From the IMG/VR virus record IMGVR_UViG_2703718835_000004: DNA of 10,170 nucleotides; one strand, written 5' to 3'. Below are positions 1-10,148 of the stretch, piece by piece. The first letter of the stretch is position 1; every line of letters starts with the position of its first letter. The notes beneath the pieces were generated by a model. That model did no database searches and was not told where the DNA came from. It saw nothing but the letters and a program-made list of their open reading frames with translations. The stretch comes from a virus (Duplodnaviria; Heunggongvirae; Uroviricota; Caudoviricetes). The position numbers were made by a program, and so were the translations under genes.

Positions 1-521
1 TCTGAGTCCGTCACATTGTTCAGCGACAGGTCTGCACAGATGATTTCATGTGTGTTACTGTCAACGGCGAGATGCAGCTTACGCCAGATACGGCGGCGTT
101 CCTGGCCATGCTTTTTGACTTTCCACTCGCCTTCACCGAAGACCTTCAGCCCGGTGGAATCAATTACCAGGTGTGCGATTTCACCCCGGGTGGGCGTTTT
201 GAAACTGACATTAACCGACTTTGCCCGCCTGCTGACACAGCTGTAATCCGGGCAGCGTAGCGGAACGTTCATCAGAGAAAAAATGGAATCAATAAAGCCC
301 TGCGCAGCGCGCAGGGTCAGCCTGAATACGCGTTTAATGACCAGCACAGTCGTGATGGCAAGGTCAGAATAGCGCTGAGGTCTGCCTCGTGAAGAAGGTG
401 TTGCCGACTCATACCAGGCCTGAATCGCCCCATCATCCAGCCAGAAAGTGAGGGAGCCACGGTTGATGAGGGCTTTATTGTAGGTGGGCCAGTTGGTTAT
501 TTTGAACTTTTGCTTTGCCAC
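1..521 (-). CDS. IS903-family DDE transposase, N-terminal ~173 codons (3' part of the gene lies outside the window)
   Basis: Uninterrupted minus-strand frame from a GTG at 521-519 to the window edge; an in-frame TTG further upstream is an alternative start. It is absent from the ORF track because there is no stop codon inside the window. Translation is typical of IS903-group transposases. Confidence 0.8.
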   Translation of the reverse strand, partial: MAKQKFKITNWPTYNKALINRGSLTFWLDDGAIQAWYESATPSSRGRPQRYSDLAITTVLVIKRVFRLTLRAAQGFIDSIFSLMNVPLRCPDYSCVSRRAKSVNVSFKTPTRGEIAHLVIDSTGLKVFGEGEWKVKKHGQERRRIWRKLHLAVDSNTHEIICADLSLNNVTDS

Positions 522-598
522 GGAACGGTCTGCGTTGTCGGGAAGATGCGTGATCTGATCCTTCAACTTAGCAAAAGTTCGATTTATTCAACAAAGCC
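1..598 (-). mobile_element. IS903-family (IS5 family) insertion sequence, terminal ~600 bp including one 18-bp inverted repeat; the rest of the element lies beyond the window start
   Basis: Positions 581-598 (gatttattcaacaaagcc) are the reverse complement of the IS903 terminal inverted repeat GGCTTTGTTGAATAAATC. The adjoining ~500 bp closely resembles, with a few substitutions, the IS903 arm that flanks aph(3')-Ia in Tn903-derived kanamycin cassettes, as I remember it. A minus-strand reading frame runs from 521 to position 1 with no stop and translates to a DDE transposase N-terminus (VAKQKFKITNWPTYNKALINRGSLTFWLDD...). Confidence 0.85.
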
Positions 599-949
599 AC
601 TTCAATCTACAAAATTGAGCACATCACTGTTGGCAAGCCAGGATCTGAACAATACCGTCATGCTTTCGAGCTTGCCGATCAGCTTGGTTTAAAACACCCG
701 GATTGCATCGAGCATGTATTTCCGACCTATGCTGATGAGCAATGTACTCATGTCCTTACCGAAGAGGATTTTTTCAGCACTGAAGAACGAGAAGGCGTTG
801 ATCGCTGCATTGGTGTGATTTGCTCTTCAGTGAGTTATGAGTTATTCCCTAATGTCCATGAAAATGGTGGTATTGGATACCAATTCCTGTACGAAGGCGA
901 TGAGCTTAAATGTTATGAACATGGTCTTCTTATCGAAAGCGTAGAATAA
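599..949 (+). pseudogene. 3' remnant (~116 codons) of a gene truncated by the IS903-family insertion; function unknown
   Basis: Frame 2 is open from the IS boundary to a TAA at 947-949 and contains no ATG; the first internal GTG would give only ~45 aa. The frame continues back into the IS inverted repeat, as expected if the IS was inserted into a pre-existing gene. Translation (...HITVGKPGSEQYRHAFELADQLGLKHPDCIEHVFPTYADEQCTHVLTEEDFF...GGIGYQFLYEGDELKCYEHGLLIESVE) has protein-like composition, and a hairpin terminator follows. Confidence 0.45.
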
Positions 950-962
950 TACCCTTCCTTCC

Positions 963-986
963 AACCGGCTATGTTGGCCGGTTTTT
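963..986 (+). terminator. Putative intrinsic terminator of the truncated upstream gene
   Basis: Stem aaccggc (963-969) pairs with gccggtt (977-983) around a 7-nt loop, followed by a T run (982-986), 14 bp after the TAA at 947-949. Confidence 0.4.
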
Positions 987-1010
987 CACTTATCCACATT
1001 ATCCACTGGG

Positions 1011-1068
1011 TAGATCCAATAATTAGGTCCATACAGATCCCAATTAGATCCATATAGATCCCTGATCG
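1011..1068. repeat. Cluster of five GATC (Dam) sites in heptamer-like repeats (AGATCCA/AGATCCC)
   Basis: GATC at 1013-1016, 1036-1039, 1047-1050, 1057-1060 and 1064-1067. P1 oriR is known to need Dam methylation of such a cluster. Confidence 0.75.
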
Positions 1069-1106
1069 TTGCAGGCCGCGCCACGTCTGGCTTAGAAGTG
1101 TATCGC

Positions 1107-1189
1107 GATGTGTGCTGGAGGGAAAACGATGTGTGCTGGAGGGATAAAAATGTGTGCTGGCGGGATATAGGATGTGTGCTGACGGGAAA
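1107..1189 (+). repeat. incC-type iterons: four direct 19-bp RepA-binding repeats
   Basis: GATGTGTGCTGGAGGGAAA (1107-1125), GATGTGTGCTGGAGGGATA (1128-1146), AATGTGTGCTGGCGGGATA (1149-1167) and GATGTGTGCTGACGGGAAA (1171-1189), spaced 21-22 bp apart (two helical turns). Confidence 0.9.
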
Positions 1190-1245
1190 GCCTGGGTAGT
1201 TATCACCACTTATAAAAACTATCCACATAATTCGGAAAAAGTAAT

Positions 1246-2106
1246 ATGAATCAATCATTTATCTCCGATATTCTTTACGCAGACATTGAAAGTAAGGCAA
1301 AAGAACTAACAGTTAATTCAAACAACACTGTGCAGCCTGTAGCGTTGATGCGCTTGGGGGTATTCGTTCCGAAGCCATCAAAGAGCAAAGGAGAAAGTAA
1401 AGAGATTGATGCCACCAAAGCGTTTTCCCAGCTGGAGATAGCTAAAGCCGAGGGTTACGATGATATTAAAATCACCGGTCCTCGACTCGATATGGATACT
1501 GATTTCAAAACGTGGATCGGTGTCATCTACGCGTTCAGCAAATACGGCTTGTCTTCAAACACCATCCAGTTATCGTTTCAGGAGTTCGCTAAAGCCTGTG
1601 GTTTCCCCTCAAAACGTCTGGATGCGAAACTGCGTTTAACCATTCATGAATCACTTGGACGCTTGCGTAACAAGGGTATCGCTTTTAAGCGCGGAAAAGA
1701 TGCTAAAGGCGGCTATCAGACTGGTCTGCTGAAGGTCGGGCGTTTTGATGCTGACCTTGATCTGATAGAGCTGGAGGCCGATTCGAAGCTCTGGGAGCTG
1801 TTCCAGCTTGATTATCGCGTTCTGTTGCAACACCACGCCTTGCGTGCCCTTCCGAAGAAAGAAGCTGCACAAGCCATTTACACTTTCATCGAAAGCCTTC
1901 CGCAGAACCCGTTGCCGCTATCGTTCGCGCGAATCCGTGAGCGCCTGGCTTTGCAGTCAGCTGTTGGCGAGCAAAACCGTATCATTAAGAAAGCGATAGA
2001 ACAGCTTAAAACAATTGGCTATCTCGACTGTTCAATTGAGAAGAAAGGCCGGGAAAGTTTTGTAATCGTCCATTCTCGCAATCCAAAGCTGAAACTTCCC
2101 GAATAA
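1246..2106 (+). CDS. repA: RepA plasmid replication initiator (P1-type iteron-binding initiator), 286 aa
   Basis: 286-aa ORF flanked on both sides by its own iterons. The length and the N-terminal sequence (MNQSFISDILYADIESKAKELT...) match my recollection of phage P1 RepA. The stop codon overlaps the first downstream iteron. Confidence 0.92.
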   Translation: MNQSFISDILYADIESKAKELTVNSNNTVQPVALMRLGVFVPKPSKSKGESKEIDATKAFSQLEIAKAEGYDDIKITGPRLDMDTDFKTWIGVIYAFSKYGLSSNTIQLSFQEFAKACGFPSKRLDAKLRLTIHESLGRLRNKGIAFKRGKDAKGGYQTGLLKVGRFDADLDLIELEADSKLWELFQLDYRVLLQHHALRALPKKEAAQAIYTFIESLPQNPLPLSFARIRERLALQSAVGEQNRIIKKAIEQLKTIGYLDCSIEKKGRESFVIVHSRNPKLKLPE

Positions 2107-2236
2107 GTGTGTGCTGGAGGGCAGCTGCATTTGAAAAATGTGCGCTGCCGGGAATGCCTGCCCATTTTCCTGTTTTTGGTGTGCGCTGGAGGGTTGCGCC
2201 ACGCAGTTTGCCCAGACATTCCCTCCAGCACACATC
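2105..2236. repeat. incA-type iteron cluster downstream of repA (three direct, one inverted)
   Basis: Iteron cores at 2106-2121 (AGTGTGTGCTGGAGGG), 2138-2154 (ATGTGCGCTGCCGGGAA, degenerate) and 2178-2193 (GGTGTGCGCTGGAGGG), plus an inverted perfect copy at 2221-2236 (ccctccagcacacatc, reverse complement of GATGTGTGCTGGAGGG). Confidence 0.8.
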
Positions 2237-2258
2237 TAATAGCCTCATCGCCATTTCT

Positions 2259-2322
2259 TTACGTGCAATAATTTACGCACGAATCAAAATAAGTTGCACG
2301 TAGCAGAATCAAACGTACAATT
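2259..2322 (+). promoter_or_regulatory. parAB promoter with overlapping inverted-repeat operator
   Basis: Candidate sigma70 promoter with -35 TTGCAC (2294-2299) and -10 TACAAT (2316-2321), 16-bp spacer. A perfect 9-bp inverted repeat, TACGTGCAA (2260-2268) and TTGCACGTA (2294-2302), overlaps the -35. Type Ia ParA proteins are known to autorepress through such operators. Confidence 0.5.
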
Positions 2323-2345
2323 CACTCATACGAAATGATAAGGAG

Positions 2346-3557
2346 ATGATGATGAAACGCGATTACGGCGGTGTCGGCACCATAGCTCTTCGTGCAAGCG
2401 CATTACTTAAGGCCATGAGTCAGGATATTGAAGATCAGCGCAAAGAGTTCAATCAGACCGAGTATTATCAGACGTTCACTCGTAACGCTGTGGCAAAGTT
2501 GCCGAAGCTGAGCCGCCGCATTGTGGAGCAGGCCATCAAAGAGATGGAAGATGATGGGTACCAGTTCAACAAGAAACAGGTCGGTAACGTTGAACAGTAC
2601 GCGCTGACCATCCAGAACGTCATTGATATCTATGCCCACCGTAAGATCCCAAAATATCGCGACATTCACAAATCGCCTTACGTTATTTTTGTCGTAAACC
2701 TGAAGGGTGGCGTATCCAAAACGGTTTCCACAGTCACGTTGGCGCACGCTCTGCGTGTGCATCAGGATTTACTGCGTCACGATCTGCGCATTCTGGTAAT
2801 TGACCTTGACCCTCAGGCATCCAGCACAATGTTCCTCGACCATACTCACAGTATTGGTTCCATCCTGGAAACCGCCGCGCAGGCGATGCTGAACGACTTG
2901 GACGCGGAGACGCTACGCAAAGAGGTGATTCGTCCGACCATTGTTCCTGGCGTAGACGTGATTCCAGCCTCTATCGACGATGGCTTTGTTGCCAGCCAAT
3001 GGAAAGAGCTGGTTGAAGAGCATCTTCCCGGACAAAATCAGTACGAAATCCTTCGACGCAATATCATTGATCGTGTTGCTGATGATTATGACTTTATCTT
3101 TATTGATACCGGTCCACACCTGGATCCGTTCCTGCTCAACGGTCTGGCGGCCAGCGATTTGCTGCTTACCCCTACCCCACCAGCCCAGGTTGACTTCCAC
3201 TCAACACTGAAATATCTCACCCGTCTGCCAGAAATGCTGGAGCAACTGGAGGAGGAAGGCGTAGAACCGCGTTTAAGCGCCAGCATTGGTTTTATGTCGA
3301 AGATGACCGGCAAGCGCGATCACGAGACATCACACAGCCTTGCGCGTGAGGTTTACGCCAGCAACATTCTGGACTCTTCTCTGCCTCGTCTGGATGGATT
3401 TGAGCGATGCGGCGAGTCTTTCGACACCGTAATCAGTGCCAACCCGCAATCGTATCCAGGCAGTGCAGAGGCGCTGAAGAAGGCACGAACCGAGGCCGAG
3501 CGTTTCACTAAGGCTGTGTTTGATCGAATTGAGTTTGTTAGGGGTGAGGCGGCATGA
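2346..3557 (+). CDS. parA: ParA partition ATPase, type Ia (P1/P7 family), with N-terminal regulatory extension
   Basis: Deviant Walker A motif KGGVSKT (residues 120-126, nt 2703-2723) after a ~100-aa N-terminal extension; overall clearly similar to, but not identical with, P1 ParA as I recall it. Three consecutive ATGs at 2346-2354 follow an AGGAG at 2341-2345, so the real start is probably the second or third ATG (2349 or 2352). Confidence 0.92.
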   Translation: MMMKRDYGGVGTIALRASALLKAMSQDIEDQRKEFNQTEYYQTFTRNAVAKLPKLSRRIVEQAIKEMEDDGYQFNKKQVGNVEQYALTIQNVIDIYAHRKIPKYRDIHKSPYVIFVVNLKGGVSKTVSTVTLAHALRVHQDLLRHDLRILVIDLDPQASSTMFLDHTHSIGSILETAAQAMLNDLDAETLRKEVIRPTIVPGVDVIPASIDDGFVASQWKELVEEHLPGQNQYEILRRNIIDRVADDYDFIFIDTGPHLDPFLLNGLAASDLLLTPTPPAQVDFHSTLKYLTRLPEMLEQLEEEGVEPRLSASIGFMSKMTGKRDHETSHSLAREVYASNILDSSLPRLDGFERCGESFDTVISANPQSYPGSAEALKKARTEAERFTKAVFDRIEFVRGEAA

Positions 3558-4519
3558 AAAAAATAGTTTCCCGTGGACGAGTGCTGGGCAAGAATAGCTC
3601 CGAGTTTGCTCGCATGCTTGAAGGCAGTGAAGGCACCAAAACCTTTACCCTAAAATCTGGCCGCCAGGCTAAATTTTTGCTTACCGTTGTGCTGAGTGGT
3701 GAGATTGAGTCGCGCACGTTCGTTGACCCGGCAGTTAACGGCCGCGATCAGTCTCTGCTCACCCCTGAGTCGGTAAGCGATATTTCCCGCACCATTAAAT
3801 TGCAACAGTTCTTCCCGGCTATCGGTCGTATGGTTGGGGAGCGCATTGAGGTATTGGACGGATCACGTCGCCGCGCTGCGTGTATCTTCAATGAAACGAA
3901 ATTTGAGATTCTGGTGACGAAAGATGAGATCAGCCTGGCGGATGCACGCCAGCTGGCCATTGATATCCAGACAGCCCGCGAACACACCCTGCGCGAACTG
4001 GGTAAACGCTTCGAGGTTATGTATGGTAAGAGCATGACCAAAGAAGAGATCGCCCGCGCTGAGAACATTTCAAAGGCTAAAGTTACGCGCGCGTTCCAGG
4101 CGGCAGCGGTGCCGGATGAGATGATTGCTGTCTTCCCTGTTGCCAGCGATCTCGCCCTGCCAGATTACCAGTTACTGCTCCAGATCTCCGAGGATGCCAA
4201 CGCTAAAAGCGTGCCTATTGAAGAGCTGGTTGATACGGTGCGCGAACGAATTGCAGAGACTGAGGGCGCGAAAGAGGATAAAGCGAAGATACTGGCTATC
4301 TTCAAAGCGGAAAGCAAAAGCCTGAAGCCCGCGCCGGTTAAATCTGTGGTGGTTGAGAAGCTGCGAGACTTCTCTGACCGTCGCCAATATGCTCGAAAGA
4401 AGTCCGATCCGAAAAAACGGGTTGTCGCCTACGAGTTCTCCAGACTCCCGTCTGAAGTGCAAACTGAAATTGACGAAGCAATAAAAAAAATCATTGGGAA
4501 AATGTCTGCTGGGGAATAA
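3554..4519 (+). CDS. parB: ParB centromere-binding partition protein (P1/P7 family), 321 aa
   Basis: Start codon overlaps the parA stop (ATGA at 3554-3557), implying translational coupling. Sits between parA and a parS-like site; conserved stretches (GRDQSLLTP, ILDGSRRRAA, AKVTRAFQAA) resemble P1 ParB. Confidence 0.9.
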   Translation: MKKIVSRGRVLGKNSSEFARMLEGSEGTKTFTLKSGRQAKFLLTVVLSGEIESRTFVDPAVNGRDQSLLTPESVSDISRTIKLQQFFPAIGRMVGERIEVLDGSRRRAACIFNETKFEILVTKDEISLADARQLAIDIQTAREHTLRELGKRFEVMYGKSMTKEEIARAENISKAKVTRAFQAAAVPDEMIAVFPVASDLALPDYQLLLQISEDANAKSVPIEELVDTVRERIAETEGAKEDKAKILAIFKAESKSLKPAPVKSVVVEKLRDFSDRRQYARKKSDPKKRVVAYEFSRLPSEVQTEIDEAIKKIIGKMSAGE

Positions 4520-4559
4520 TTCCGCTGGTGGGAGGTGGTGTTAGCCCCTCCCCTTTCTA

Positions 4560-4650
4560 AAATGTCCCGCACCAATTTCATTGCTAACCTTGTGATTTGC
4601 ATGTGTTTTTTAGGAGAATTTCAGACTGAAATTCCCACGATTTAACGCCT
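4560..4650 (+). other. parS-like partition site (centromere analogue): heptamer and hexamer ParB boxes around an IHF-like site
   Basis: Right arm AATTTCAG-ACTGAAAT-TCCCAC-GATTTAAC (4617-4646) is arranged like the P1 parS right arm as I recall it. Left arm has TCCCGC (4565-4570) and ATTTCAT (4575-4581). Between them, an IHF-consensus-like AATCACAAGGTTA lies on the minus strand at about 4586-4598. Confidence 0.7.
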
Positions 4651-4703
4651 GCATTCACCGTCCACTTCCCCGCACAAAAAATTTAAAAAATTACTTTTCG
4701 CGA

Positions 4704-4733
4704 GAAAGTCAACAAGTGACTTTCAATAAAATC
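4704..4733 (+). promoter_or_regulatory. Candidate late-type promoter for the structural operon: inverted repeat upstream of an A/T-rich -10
   Basis: Perfect 8-bp inverted repeat GAAAGTCA (4704-4711) / TGACTTTC (4717-4724) with a 5-bp spacer, followed by TAAAAT (4727-4732) and no recognisable -35. P1 late promoters are known to pair a -10 with an upstream conserved element bound by the late activator in place of a -35. Confidence 0.4.
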
Positions 4734-4783
4734 TCTTCCGAAAAGGGATTCACACAAGTGCCTTGTGTTTAAGGAAGAGTAAA

Positions 4784-6490
4784 TTGAGTAACTTACGCGA
4801 ATACCAGAATCGTATTGCAGATATCGCAAAACGCTCTAAAGCTGTGCTTGGCTGGGCAAGCACTGCGCAGTTCGGTACTGATAACCAATTCATTAAAGAT
4901 GATGCCGCGCGTGCCGCATCTATCCTTGAAGCTGCACGTAAAGACCCGGTTTTTGCGGGTATCTCTGATAATGCCACCGCTCAAATCGCTACAGCGTGGG
5001 CAAGTGCACTGGCTGACTACGCCGCAGCACATAAATCTATGCCGCGTCCGGAAATTCTGGCCTCCTGCCACCAGACGCTGGAAAACTGCCTGATTGAGTC
5101 CACCCGCAATAGCATGGATGCCACTAATAAAGCGATGCTGGAATCCGTCGCAGCAGAGATGATGAGCGTTTCTGACGGTGTTATGCGTCTGCCTTTATTC
5201 CTCGCGATGATCCTGCCTGTTCAGTTGGGGGCAGCTACCGCTGATGCGTGTACCTTCATTCCGGTTACGCGTGACCAGTCCGACATCTATGAAGTCTTTA
5301 ACGTGGCAGGTTCATCTTTTGGTTCTTATGCTGCTGGTGATGTTCTGGACATGCAATCCGTCGGTGTGTACAGCCAGTTACGTCGCCGCTATGTGCTGGT
5401 GGCAAGCTCCGATGGCACCAGCAAAACCGCAACCTTCAAGATGGAAGACTTCGAAGGCCAGAATGTACCAATCCGAAAAGGTCGCACTAACATCTACGTT
5501 AACCGTATTAAGTCTGTTGTTGATAACGGTTCCGGCAGCCTACTTCACTCGTTTACTAATGCTGCTGGTGAGCAAATCACTGTTACCTGCTCTCTGAACT
5601 ACAACATTGGTCAGATTGCCCTGTCGTTCTCCAAAGCGCCGGATAAAGGCACTGAGATCGCAATTGAGACGGAAATCAATATTGAAGCCGCTCCTGAGCT
5701 GATCCCGCTGATCAACCACGAAATGAAGAAATACACCCTGTTCCCAAGTCAGTTCGTTATCGCGGCTGAGCACACGGTACAGGCGGCGTATGAAGCACAG
5801 CGTGAATTTGGTCTGGACCTGGGTTCCCTACAGTTCCGCACCCTGAAGGAATACCTGTCTCATGAACAGGATATGCTGCGTCTTCGCATCATGATCTGGC
5901 GTACTCTTGCGACCGACACCTTTGACATCGCTCTGCCGGTTAACCAGTCCTTTGATGTATGGGCAACCATCATTCGTGGCAAATTCCAGACTGTATATCG
6001 CGACATTATTGAGCGCGTTAAATCTTCTGGTGCGATGGGGATGTTTGCTGGTGCTGATGCAGCATCTTTCTTCAAACAGTTGCCGAAGGATTTCTTCCAG
6101 CCAGCCGAAGACTATATCCAGACTCCGTATGTTCACTACATCGGTACCCTGTTCGGTAACGTGAAAGTGTACGAAGTACCTGCTGGTATTTGTAAGAACT
6201 TAACGACAGAGAACATTCAGTTCAGCTCGATGGATGTGCTGTGCTACGTCCGTGATGAAAATCCGGGTAAAGCAGGCTTCGTGACTGGTGATGCTGTCCC
6301 GGCCATCCCGTTCCAGCATCCGACCACTCCGGCGCTGGTCAACCGTACCACGCTGTGGGGTTCGGCTATCAACGATATGCACCCACGCAACGGCGCTGAT
6401 TACTTCACTCGTGTAACGCTGACAATGGCCAAAAAAGGCGGGCTTAACTTTATAAGCGGCGACACGATTGATGCCGGTGACTCTGAGTAA
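4784..6490 (+). CDS. Putative major head (capsid) protein, ~568 aa; probable TTG start
   Basis: Long ORF (track 4763-6490) with no in-frame ATG for ~90 codons. The TTG at 4784 lies 6 nt after a strong AAGGAAG (4771-4777). It is the first gene of an operon immediately after parS and before the sheath gene; size (~62 kDa) and position match the P1 major head gene next to par, from memory. Function is inferred from synteny and size only. Confidence 0.5.
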   Translation: MSNLREYQNRIADIAKRSKAVLGWASTAQFGTDNQFIKDDAARAASILEAARKDPVFAGISDNATAQIATAWASALADYAAAHKSMPRPEILASCHQTLENCLIESTRNSMDATNKAMLESVAAEMMSVSDGVMRLPLFLAMILPVQLGAATADACTFIPVTRDQSDIYEVFNVAGSSFGSYAAGDVLDMQSVGVYSQLRRRYVLVASSDGTSKTATFKMEDFEGQNVPIRKGRTNIYVNRIKSVVDNGSGSLLHSFTNAAGEQITVTCSLNYNIGQIALSFSKAPDKGTEIAIETEINIEAAPELIPLINHEMKKYTLFPSQFVIAAEHTVQAAYEAQREFGLDLGSLQFRTLKEYLSHEQDMLRLRIMIWRTLATDTFDIALPVNQSFDVWATIIRGKFQTVYRDIIERVKSSGAMGMFAGADAASFFKQLPKDFFQPAEDYIQTPYVHYIGTLFGNVKVYEVPAGICKNLTTENIQFSSMDVLCYVRDENPGKAGFVTGDAVPAIPFQHPTTPALVNRTTLWGSAINDMHPRNGADYFTRVTLTMAKKGGLNFISGDTIDAGDSE

Positions 6491-6516
6491 TCAGGGGAAG
6501 TTCTCCGTTTAACATA

Positions 6517-6534
6517 GCGCCCCGTGCGGGGCGC
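6517..6534 (+). other. GC-rich hairpin between the head and sheath genes (no U tract)
   Basis: gcgcccc (6517-6523) pairs with ggggcgc (6528-6534) around a gtgc loop, 27 nt after the stop of the head gene; the following sequence is not T-rich, so it is not a classic terminator. Confidence 0.4.
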
Positions 6535-6549
6535 ATAACAGGGAAAGTT

Positions 6550-8139
6550 ATGTCTCAATATTCAATTCAACAGTCATTAGGTAATGCATCCGGTGTCGCT
6601 GTTAGCCCGATCAATGCCGATGCGACGTTATCTACCGGTGTTGTATTAAATAGCAGCTTGTGGGCAGGTATTGGTGTATTTGCGCGTGGCAAGCCGTTTA
6701 CTGTTCTTGCGGTTACTGAGTTCAATTACGAAGATGTTCTCGGCGAACCGCTGAAGCCGTCCTCCGGCTCACAGTTCGAACCAATTCGCCATGTGTACGA
6801 AGCTATTCAGCAAACGTCTGGTTATGTTGTCCGTGCTGTTCCGGATGATGCGAAGTTCCCGATTATTATGTTCGATGAATCAGGCGAACCGGCTTACAGT
6901 GCGTTGCCATACGGTTCTGAAATTGAACTTGATAGCGGCGAAGCCTTTGCTATCTACGTTGATGATGGTGATCCGTGTATTTCTCCTACCCGTGAGTTAA
7001 CCATCGAAACGGCAACAGCGGACAGCGCGGGTAATGAACGCTTCCTCTTAAAACTGACCCAGACGACTTCGCTCGGTGTGGTAACGACCCTGGAGACACA
7101 CACTGTGTCTTTGGCGGAAGAAGCGAAAGATGACATGGGCCGCTTGTGTTATCTGCCTACGGCTCTGGAAGCCCGTTCTAAATATCTGCGCGCGGTTGTT
7201 AATGAAGAGCTGATTTCGACGGCGAAAGTAACAAATAAAAAATCGCTGGCGTTCACTGGCGGTACCAACGGCGATCAGTCGAACATTTCCACTGCTGTTT
7301 ACCTGCGTGCGGTGAAAGTGCTGAACAATGCGCCGTACATGTACACCGCTGTTCTCGGCCTGGGTTGCTATGACAATGCGGCGATCACTGCGTTAGGTAA
7401 TATCTGTTCTGATCGCTTGATTGATGGCTTCTTTGATGTCAAACCGACATTGACGTACACGGAAGCGATCTCTGCTGTTGAAGATACCGGTTTACTTGGT
7501 ACCGATTATGTAAGCTGTGCTGTCTATCATTTCCCGTTCTCCTGCAAAGACAAATGGACCCAATCCCGCGTGGTCTTCGGTCTGTCTGGCGCGGCGTATG
7601 CGGCGAAAGCTCGTGGCGTCAAGAAAAACTCCGATGTCGGCGGTTGGCATTACTCACCGGCTGGTGAAGAACGTGCCGTCATTGCTCGTGCATCACTTCA
7701 GCCGCTGTATCCTGAAGACACCCCGGACGAAGAAGCTATGGTCAAGGGCCGACTCAATAAAGTATCTGTAGGTACTTCGGGCCAGATGATCATCGATGAT
7801 GCTTTAACTTGCTGCACGCAGGACAACTATCTGCATTTCCAGCACGTCCCATCCCTGATGAACGCAATCAGCCGTTTCTTTGTCCAGTTAGCCCTACAGA
7901 TGAAGCATAACCCGGACGGCATTACTGAGTCTGGCCTGACTAAAGGGATGACCAAACTTTTGGATCGCTTTGTCGCCTCCGGCGCTCTGGTGGCTCCTCG
8001 TGATCCTGATGCTGACGGTACAGAACCGTATGTGCTGAAAGTTACGCAGGCGGAATTCGATAAATGGGAAGTAGTCTGGGCCTGCTGCCCGACTGGCGTA
8101 GCCCGTCGTATCCAGGGCGTACCGCTGCTTATTAAGTAA
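6550..8139 (+). CDS. Contractile tail sheath protein, 529 aa
   Basis: The central/C-terminal region carries a pattern I recognise from myovirus sheath proteins such as P2 FI (...AFTGGTNGDQSN...AVYLRAV..., ...AAYAAKARGVKKNSDVGGWHYSPAG...). Size (~57 kDa) and position directly after the head gene are consistent. Confidence 0.7.
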   Translation: MSQYSIQQSLGNASGVAVSPINADATLSTGVVLNSSLWAGIGVFARGKPFTVLAVTEFNYEDVLGEPLKPSSGSQFEPIRHVYEAIQQTSGYVVRAVPDDAKFPIIMFDESGEPAYSALPYGSEIELDSGEAFAIYVDDGDPCISPTRELTIETATADSAGNERFLLKLTQTTSLGVVTTLETHTVSLAEEAKDDMGRLCYLPTALEARSKYLRAVVNEELISTAKVTNKKSLAFTGGTNGDQSNISTAVYLRAVKVLNNAPYMYTAVLGLGCYDNAAITALGNICSDRLIDGFFDVKPTLTYTEAISAVEDTGLLGTDYVSCAVYHFPFSCKDKWTQSRVVFGLSGAAYAAKARGVKKNSDVGGWHYSPAGEERAVIARASLQPLYPEDTPDEEAMVKGRLNKVSVGTSGQMIIDDALTCCTQDNYLHFQHVPSLMNAISRFFVQLALQMKHNPDGITESGLTKGMTKLLDRFVASGALVAPRDPDADGTEPYVLKVTQAEFDKWEVVWACCPTGVARRIQGVPLLIK

Positions 8140-8148
8140 GGAAATACA

Positions 8149-8964
8149 ATGAGCAAAAACTTTTTTCAATCCGGGGCATTTTTGGGGAATGGACTGTCTC
8201 GTTTCGCTTTGAACTCTGATCTTGTGCAGTTGATGGAGTCTGCCCGAGCAAGCGCCGAACCGACAATAGATCCGGTTATTAATAATAATCCGGAACCGGC
8301 GGCACAGACTAACGATAATGCTCCATCTGCCACGGCTCCTGAGCAAATCCTGGAAGGGAAAGACGGTAAAGAATGGACCGTCGAACAGGCGCACCAGATG
8401 ATTCTGGAAGCTGCAAATCGAAGTGCTATGCAGAATGCGTTGAGTGATGCGGCCGACGCCGTTTTCGCCTGGGCTGATAGCGGTGATCTGACTTTCGACT
8501 CCCTTGATGGTTTCGTTCAGGCTATCGCTGGTATCTCTGATGACGACGACTCCGAAGTTACAGAAGAACAGGACGATGCCTATAACGAAGCATGGGCAAA
8601 TGTTGCTGACTTCCTCGCAGCATGCGGTGTAGATGATGACCTGATCGAAGCACTGGCTGACGATGAAGACGACGACGCAGCTGCTGATGTTGGTGCCTCT
8701 ATCGCTGGTTTAGATAGCGACGACCGCGACGAACTGGAAGCGGCGTTTGTTGTTGCTGGCACTTCTGATGAAATGCTGACTGAAGCATTTAAGAAGGTTG
8801 TTCGTAACGGTGAGATCAAACTCATCCGTAAACGCCTGCGTAAAAAACGTCTGACTGCGGCTCAAAAATCGGCGCTGAAAAAAGCGCGTCGAAAAGCCCA
8901 GACCGGCGCGGCAAAACTTGCCCGCAAAAAGTCAATGAAACTGCGCCGTAAGCGCCTTGGCTAA
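8149..8964 (+). CDS. Hypothetical virion-module protein, 271 aa, strongly acidic body with a highly basic C-terminal tail
   Basis: ATG at 8149 lies 5 nt after AAGGAAA. The body contains acidic runs (DDDDSEVTEEQDD, DDEDDDAAAD, DSDDRDELE); the last ~56 residues contain about 26 Lys/Arg (LIRKRLRKKRLTAAQKSALKKARRKAQTGAAKLARKKSMKLRRKRLG). No family recognised. Confidence 0.7.
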   Translation: MSKNFFQSGAFLGNGLSRFALNSDLVQLMESARASAEPTIDPVINNNPEPAAQTNDNAPSATAPEQILEGKDGKEWTVEQAHQMILEAANRSAMQNALSDAADAVFAWADSGDLTFDSLDGFVQAIAGISDDDDSEVTEEQDDAYNEAWANVADFLAACGVDDDLIEALADDEDDDAAADVGASIAGLDSDDRDELEAAFVVAGTSDEMLTEAFKKVVRNGEIKLIRKRLRKKRLTAAQKSALKKARRKAQTGAAKLARKKSMKLRRKRLG

Positions 8965-8990
8965 AGGAGGAGGCCGGAGAACTCCGGCCT
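8965..8990 (+). promoter_or_regulatory. Shine-Dalgarno sequence separated from its start codon by a stable hairpin (split ribosome-binding site)
   Basis: AGGAGGAGG at 8965-8973 follows the upstream stop; a hairpin at 8971-8990 (7-8 bp GC-rich stem, loop gaac) precedes ATG 9000. There is no SD within 5-12 nt of the ATG, and an in-frame TGA at 8997-8999 rules out an earlier start. Confidence 0.4.
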
Positions 8991-8999
8991 TTAACTTGA

Positions 9000-9581
9000 A
9001 TGGCTCCTATAGCTTATGGGGTTTACAGCCAGGCTGACGGTGTATCGCCATATCTGAAAGTTACTTTAACGAACTCTCAGTACCAGGTTACCGGATATAT
9101 CAGCCAGGGAGCGGCAATGAACATGGCCCAGAATTGGGAAGCGCCGTTTACCGGTATGTCCATGGGATCTGTTTCTGGTGCTCTGGGTGGTTTTGTGCAA
9201 GTAGGTACTGAAACAACGTCGGTTGCCCGTTGGAATAGCTTAATGGTTTGGGAAGGGGGGACTCCGCCGACGTTCACGCTGCCTGTAACTTTCATTGCTT
9301 TGAACAATCCATTCATTGAAGTTTCAGGCGCTATCGCCGCGTTGACAGCCATGATTAGCCCGGAACTAAAAGCGGCCAATGTTGGTGGTCGAATCCCGGA
9401 GCGCGTGACGCTAAACATTGGTCGCCGGATCAACATCACCGATGTCGCCATCCAGGACTTAAGTTTTGATCTCGATGCGCCAAGGGACAGTAATGGATAT
9501 TTCCTGAAAAACACCGTCAACCTCCAGTTGACCGGTTCTTCGATATATAACAGCTCCGATATTGTTCGGGCGTTCCAGTAA
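9000..9581 (+). CDS. Hypothetical phage structural protein, 193 aa (tail tube or other tail component is possible)
   Basis: Co-directional ORF in the sheath operon with protein-like composition; size (~21 kDa) fits a tail-tube-class protein, but no motif was recognised. Confidence 0.6.
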   Translation: MAPIAYGVYSQADGVSPYLKVTLTNSQYQVTGYISQGAAMNMAQNWEAPFTGMSMGSVSGALGGFVQVGTETTSVARWNSLMVWEGGTPPTFTLPVTFIALNNPFIEVSGAIAALTAMISPELKAANVGGRIPERVTLNIGRRINITDVAIQDLSFDLDAPRDSNGYFLKNTVNLQLTGSSIYNSSDIVRAFQ

Positions 9582-9592
9582 AAGGATTTTAT

Positions 9593-10102
9593 ATGGGGCA
9601 CAATAACACTAAGGGAAACCGTAAATTTATTAAGGGCCGCTATACTGCCAACGCGGCCAAAGGCGAACGACTGGTATCTTCTGAATTCCAGCTCACTTTT
9701 GCAGGCCATGAAGATATCAGCGTACTGGTTCGTACGTCGCAAATCCCTGAAATGACTCGAGAGAATGTGGAGGACTATGGTCCGAATGGTGTGAAGTTCA
9801 ACCAGCACGGACCAATTCGAAACTCTGGGGAAATCCAGGTCCAGTGCGTGGAGACTATCGAAGGCGATATTCTTCAGTTCATTAAGGATCGCATTGCGGC
9901 GAAGGACTATGTTGATATCACGATGGCTGCTACCCCTGAATCCAAATCTTCCGGGGTTAACGCTGTGACAAAAGCTGCTACAACAATTGAAATGTTGGAC
10001 TGCAAAATCTACAGTGATGCAATCGACTTTAGTACCGAAGATGTGACTGCCGCTGTGCGCCCGTCACTTCGTATCGTCTACAACTGGATTGAGTGGGATT
10101 AA
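9593..10102 (+). CDS. Hypothetical phage structural protein, 169 aa (tail-associated candidate)
   Basis: ATG at 9593 lies 5 nt after AAGGA (9583-9587), 11 nt after the previous stop; the gene is followed by a strong intrinsic terminator, as expected for an abundantly expressed structural gene. Confidence 0.6.
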   Translation: MGHNNTKGNRKFIKGRYTANAAKGERLVSSEFQLTFAGHEDISVLVRTSQIPEMTRENVEDYGPNGVKFNQHGPIRNSGEIQVQCVETIEGDILQFIKDRIAAKDYVDITMAATPESKSSGVNAVTKAATTIEMLDCKIYSDAIDFSTEDVTAAVRPSLRIVYNWIEWD

Positions 10103-10121
10103 GAGTCATCCCTTGTATTTT

Positions 10122-10148
10122 AAAGCTCCTTCGGGAGCTTTTTTATTT
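10122..10148 (+). terminator. Rho-independent terminator with a UUCG tetraloop
   Basis: Stem aaagctcc (10122-10129) pairs with ggagcttt (10134-10141) around loop ttcg, followed by a T run (TTTTTTATTT, 10139-10148), 20 nt after the TAA at 10100-10102. Confidence 0.85.

Follow-up and report, generated by a model that had tools for sequence, protein, structure and literature searches.

The partition (par) systems of phages P1 and P7 are known to differ in the incompatibility that they mediate (incB), and the literature treats P1 as having a partition species specificity of its own. The parS site of pWR100 is reportedly of P1 specificity because it has the box B in common with P1, though the rest of that site differs strongly. 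According to the summary in PMC10999674, which cites Dabrazhynetskaya 2005/2009 and Sergueev 2005, ParB binding needs only the boxes A2, A3 and B2, while discrimination and partition incompatibility are both set by box B, specifically by B2. The P7 par system is already known, and the common natural parS allele described below was noted in passing in 2019 for the E. coli phage-plasmid pTZ20_1P, which was recorded as "parAB 99.8% P7 ... 3' parB 81%" (Venturini et al. 2019, PMC6906374). The par region of pTZ20_1P is called 'P7-like' and has the pattern seen here; that paper holds no box-level analysis, and the likeness rests on its published percentages.

The 10,170-nucleotide stretch of DNA that we analysed as a whole (the window) comes from a P1-like phage-plasmid that carries the partition system of phage P7. 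By megablast, phage P7 matched window positions 588–10144 with 97.2% identity, covering 94% of the query. With P1, coverage of the query fell to 71%, since the par genes fail to align; the flanking phage genes are ~97% identical to P1. The features are collected in Table 1. The window opens with the end of an IS903-like element (97.7% identity with the IS903 of phage HK022), whose terminal repeat (cgatttattcaacaaagcc) is at 578–596. The upfA region, which lies upstream of oriR, is either adjoined or interrupted by this end, and homology to P1/P7 begins at 588. An Rfam scan of the window at the gathering threshold gave no match.

Table 1 Features of the window and their coordinates
Feature	Coordinates	Strand	Remarks
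IS903-like end	1-598		
oriR/incC and repA	1246-2106 (repA)		
incA, short	between repA and parA		
incA iterons	2107-2124, 2139-2156, 2179-2196	+	
incA iteron	2218-2235	-	
parA	2346-3557	+	Walker-type partition ATPase, N-terminal HTH
parB	3554-4519	+	centromere-binding protein
Divergence island around parS	4521-4667		~74-81% identical to reference P7; flanks ~99.5%
GC-rich inverted repeat GGGAGG-N11-CCTCCC	4530-4552	+	just 3′ of the parB stop
parS box B1, GTCCCG	4564-4569	+	annotated P7 boxB(1), same position
parS box A1, ATTTCAT	4575-4581	+	annotated P7 boxA(1)
IHF core, TAACCTTGTGATT	4585-4597	+	position as in the annotated P1 and P7 IHF sites
parS box A2, ATTTCAG	4618-4624	+	P7 boxA(2)
parS box A3, CTGAAAT on +, ATTTCAG on -	4626-4632	-	P7 boxA(3)
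parS box B2, TTCCCA	4632-4637	+	annotated P7 boxB(2); specificity-determining hexamer, TC at positions 2-3
parS box A4, ATTTAAC, variant	4640-4646	+	P7 GTTTCAC, P1 ATTTCAC
Late promoter LP23, capsid gene	4715-4733	+	-22 box AAGTGACTT, -10 TAAAAT; annotated P7 LP23; outside parS
P1/P7 capsid (gene 23), sheath (gene 22) and morphogenesis genes	downstream of the parS region		

Both partition proteins are those of P7. ParA and ParB were identical to their P7 counterparts throughout (403/403 and 321/321 amino acids), the two genes together differing from P7 at 7 nucleotides, one of them in parB, with 0 protein changes. Identity to the P1 proteins was 58% for ParA, which bears out the divergence from P1 ParA noticed in the preliminary description, and 43% for ParB. 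ParA contains the Pfam domains HTH_54 and AAA_31. ParB contains the Pfam ParB domain (PF08775, E=6e-33), and its residues 137–316 align to the P1 ParB chains in PDB 1ZX4/2NTZ; by Pfam and PDB alignment, it is a cognate ParB with a helix-turn-helix and a C-terminal dimer/box-B-binding domain. Within parB, ~20 mostly synonymous polymorphisms at 3946–4216 part the haplotype shared by the window and P7 from that of most relatives, and this block is found with either of the parS alleles described below, which shows recombination inside parB.

Directly 3′ of parB, which stops at 4519, lies a complete centromere of the P1par family (4564–4646, 83 bp), a placement shared with P1 and P7. The whole site falls within positions 4560–4650, where parS had been proposed. 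Box assignment follows the register used by the GenBank annotations of P1 and P7, together with the summary in PMC10999674. All four heptameric A boxes are present, A1, A2 and A3 as perfect ATTTCAB and A4 with one departure from ATTTCAN, and A2 and A3 form a perfect inverted repeat (GAATTTCAG/CTGAAATTC). The two B hexamers occupy the offsets typical of the family, B1 starting 11 bp before A1 and B2 overlapping the last base of A3, while the distances from A1 to A2 (43 bp) and from B1 to B2 (68 bp) are equal in the window, P7 and P1. The putative IHF core lies centrally between helically phased arms and agrees, as its reverse complement AATCACAAGGTTA, with the consensus WATCAANNNNTTR at 8 of 9 positions by manual count. 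The composite A2-N-A3-B2 pattern (ATTTCANNNTGAAATNNCCA) has a single exact match in the window, at 4618–4637, and with up to two mismatches allowed it has 2 overlapping matches, against 0.04 expected from shuffles. Taken singly, neither kind of box was significantly enriched across the window (heptamers, 10 found and 6.3 expected; hexamers, 21 found and 17.8 expected), and significance is confined to the composite arrangement.

The heptamers and their layout had been said to track the right arm of P1 parS, as indeed they do: from A2 to A4, 23 of the 29 nucleotides are identical to P1 (26 of 29 to P7), and the site has three perfect heptamers plus ATTTAAC. The hexamers had been read as TCCCGC and TCCCAC, strings that are present at 4565–4570 and 4633–4638, respectively. 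They were correctly judged to be of non-P1 type, but their register has to be amended, since they represent GTCCCG and TTCCCA shifted by +1. TCGCCA, the hexamer given there for P1, is the sequence of both annotated box B sites of NC_005856.

Strings resembling box B also occur nearby. A direct repeat, CCCGCAC(C/A)AA, overlaps B1 at 4566–4575 and recurs at 4669–4678, just to the right of the divergence island, and a reverse-strand TCCCAC at 4528–4533 lies within the inverted repeat that follows parB; these resemblances may be due to chance. The inverted repeat itself is kept in all P7-type loci and could possibly form a hairpin at the end of the transcript. Since a scan of 4350–4850 for consensus promoters and terminators gave no match, we do not claim it as a terminator.

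We then compared the site with the named par systems. In phage P7 (AF503408 / X17529), B1, A1, A2, A3 and B2 are identical to those of the window and stand at the same offsets, the IHF core is likewise of the TAA-N4-NTGATW type, no inter-box distance differs, and parS again lies between parB and LP23 / gene 23. The bases between B1 and A1 differ, being CACCA in the window and CGCCT in P7. Phage P1 (NC_005856) shares the B1-A1-IHF-A2-A3-B2-A4 architecture and the 43/68-bp geometry, but the window has neither its hexamer nor a P1-type ParB. Yersinia pestis pMT1 shares the family layout and the 43-bp spacing, and its ParB is 67% identical, but its box B is TCACCA at both positions, unlike that of the window, which also lacks a ParB of pMT1 type. 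In a Shigella pSF5 locus, presumably of the pWR100 type, the B boxes are TCGCCA/TCGCCT. By contrast, the B2 of the window is TTCCCA and the box-B recognition region of its ParB is of P7 type, the whole protein being identical. Taken with the rule, as summarized in PMC10999674, that B2 discriminates, this B2 argues for P7 specificity. Thus, 4564–4646 is very probably the parS centromere of a P7-type parABS cassette on a P1-like phage-plasmid, as judged from sequence, and represents a natural allele of P7 parS.

The preliminary description had left the choice between a P7-like and a novel specificity. The former is upheld, as ParA and ParB are 100% identical to P7 and both B boxes are the annotated P7 boxes; the latter is to be abandoned, as ParB and all essential boxes belong to the known P7 system. 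The comparison with P1, P7 and pMT1 that it had proposed gave boxes of P7 type, distinct from the TCGCCA of P1 and the TCACCA of pMT1, and neither P1-type hexamers nor a P1-like ParB (only 43% identical) came to light.

Outside this group, a Klebsiella pneumoniae IncFIB(K) plasmid (NZ_CP086668.1; our locus L071, 1400–1485) encodes a ParB 62% identical to P7 ParB and has a parS-like site 3′ of parB, with the B boxes TTCCCA and TTCCCT and hence the TC dinucleotide as in P7. These boxes raise the question of whether P7-type phage-plasmids might engage in cross-talk, or be incompatible, with the IncFIB(K) plasmids that are widespread in Klebsiella.

How the site would work can be outlined from studies of P1 and P7, from which binding, bending, partition and specificity are carried over to what was observed here, namely the identity of proteins, boxes and geometry and the frequency of the allele. 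ParB dimers would contact the A heptamers with the helix-turn-helix, and their C-terminal dimer domain would bind the B hexamers. Bending of the central part of the site by host IHF would bring the left arm (B1-A1) and the right arm (A2-A3-B2-A4) together in one ParB-wrapped complex, and the ParA ATPase would then position the plasmid copies ahead of division. Owing to the TC at positions 2–3 of box B, above all in B2, the site would be recognized by P7 ParB but neither by P1 ParB (CG) nor by pMT1 ParB (CA).

Several differences count against reading the site as a P7 allele. The 221 bp at 4500–4720 are 81.2% identical to both P7 records (83.0% to OP279344, which is labelled P1), the 36-bp spacer differs from P7 at 20/36 positions, and A4 differs at 2/7; the other boxes, the IHF core and the distances are unchanged. 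Over 5 kb, there are 76 differences from P7, of which 42 (substitutions or indels) fall within 4521–4699. As an allele of P7 parS, the site would have kept its boxes, IHF core and distances, while the spacer and the box flanks were replaced and the dispensable A4 acquired two changes.

To place these differences among natural relatives, we used 35 IMG/VR loci (L034–L068) that were sampled through ParB and were hence not selected on parS; this sample replaced an earlier scan of viral contigs by the A2-A3-B2 pattern, which was biased to conserved boxes. Two main parS alleles, ~26% different from each other, were found among the 35 loci on near-identical ParB (99–100%), one of the P7-reference type with the AT-rich spacer GTATAAATATATGATATATATAGAYATTCATGRAAA and one of the window type with the spacer TGCTAACMTTRTGATTTGCATGTGTTTTTTAGGAGA. 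Intermediate alleles accompanied slightly more diverged ParB in L056, L057 and L059; the left half of the L056 site resembles the window type and its right half the P7-reference type, which suggests that halves of parS can be exchanged. Compared with the P7-reference-type loci, divergence is 24–27% in the island, 0.2–0.7% in parA, 0.5–3% in parB and ~1% in the LP23 region. The 36-nucleotide spacers of the main alleles differ from each other at 17–20 positions, and either differs from P1 at 19 and from pMT1 at 20–21; across 11 alleles/species, no spacer column is invariant except the TA and the TG of the IHF core.

Divergence of this depth beside flanks that differ by less than 3%, and the coexistence in the population of two deep alleles on the same ParB, might be taken to mean that the diverged spacer, box flanks and A4 confer a new or partly separate specificity, such that the site does not compete with the reference P7 parS in spite of the same ParB; Venturini 2019 (PMC6906374) speculated about a 'potential modification of replicon function' for such regions. 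We regard this as very improbable. Identical ParB would be a protein without the means to tell the two sites apart, the required boxes A2, A3 and B2, along with B1 and A1, are identical, and the literature as summarized in PMC10999674 has B2 alone setting incompatibility. The hybrid allele of L056, which suggests exchangeable halves, likewise counts against it.

The same loci show which parts of the site are held constant. B1 is GTCCCG, A1 is ATTTCAT and A2 is ATTTCAG in 32 loci each; B2 is TTCCCA in 33 and A3 is CTGAAAT in 34; the A1-to-A2 spacing of 43 bp and an 83-bp site without indels are likewise found in 34 of the 35. A4 is the most variable box (ATTTAAC in 13 loci, GTTTCAC in 14, ATTTCAC in 4, TTTTCAC in 2 and others in 2). 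Thus, constraint falls on the boxes, the IHF core and the geometry but not on the spacer sequence and A4, which vary freely, in agreement with the classical bent, wrapped complex. In two loci of the P7-reference type, L054 and L065, B1 is GCCCCG, with a change at a discriminator position, and B2 is unchanged, which fits the report, as given in PMC10999674, that only B2 sets specificity.

The edges of the island are sharp and coincide with the parB stop codon and the late-promoter region. Relative to the P7-reference-type loci, the last 300 bp of parB contain ~1 difference (at 4393) and the next 150 bp ~40. Gradual neutral drift was considered as the origin of the island and is ruled out by this step from ~1 to ~40 differences between adjoining segments. 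parB is mosaic, its 3946–4216 block segregating independently of the parS allele, and the parS of L056 is a hybrid. The island is most simply read as the outcome of homologous exchange that is frequent among P1-like plasmids and moves an old, saturated spacer allele about. Local accelerated evolution is possible as well. It is very unlikely, in our estimate, that the service of two deeply diverged parS alleles by one P7 ParB reflects selection on the spacer and not neutral mosaicism. Were this so, selection might act on the strength of IHF-dependence, on ParB spreading or silencing of the adjacent capsid-gene promoters, or on a partial easing of the competition for partition among P1-like plasmids that co-infect a cell.

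The allele is frequent in nature. At a threshold of at least 95% identity, it was found in 127 PLSDB plasmids and in 127 RefSeq E. coli records, the RefSeq picture being as in PLSDB, which indicates that it is maintained. The 80–90% band, which holds the P7-reference type, comprised ~103 PLSDB plasmids, and 540 had a P1-type partial match alone. P7-type ParB (at least 90% amino acid identity) formed a tight cluster of 234 plasmid records. Many E. coli plasmids belong to the lineage with the P7-type par, as do plasmids of ~84 kb in Salmonella enterica isolated from human blood.

The incA region, a locus of copy-number control, is short in the window: it has 4 RepA iterons (2107–2235) against 9 in P1 and P7, and the repA-parA gap measures 239 bp, compared with ~558 bp in P1. 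A deletion from one iteron to another seems to have occurred, which could raise the copy number. In related loci, the region seems to be of full length, as judged from the alignment offset alone. In oriR/incC (1108–1189), 4 iterons are present against 5 in P1, with a clean alignment gap of 21 bp, or one iteron.

A raised copy number could relax the need for partition, and A4 is off consensus. The site might be a decaying, non-functional centromere on a plasmid that persists in some other way, for instance through addiction modules or a raised copy number. We consider this extremely unlikely, since the 83-bp site has suffered no indels despite heavy substitution, its spacing is exact and its IHF core is kept, parA and parB are intact and protein-identical to P7, and the allele occurs in more than 120 plasmids, most of them apparently, by the same alignment offset alone, with a full-length incA.

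The replicon points in another direction from the partition cassette. RepA is identical to P1 RepA (286/286 amino acids) and the oriR/incC iterons are nearly identical to those of P1, which together indicate the replicon incompatibility group of P1; from its sequence, the whole plasmid would be replicon-incompatible with P1. The suggestion that the plasmid might be compatible with a resident P1 therefore holds only for par-mediated incompatibility (incB) and fails at the level of the replicon. Among 5426 RefSeq E. coli genomes, 770 matching records were distributed over 767 genomes, so two such plasmids per genome are rare, consistent with a shared incompatibility group.

The par specificity class can be recognized from box B in raw sequence; beyond that, the locus has little significance. 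The comparative loci amount to a natural mutagenesis map of parS, which agrees with classical genetics. For a common phage-plasmid lineage, the analysis provides an annotation label: a P1-type (IncY) replicon that carries a P7-type par, with the incB of P7.
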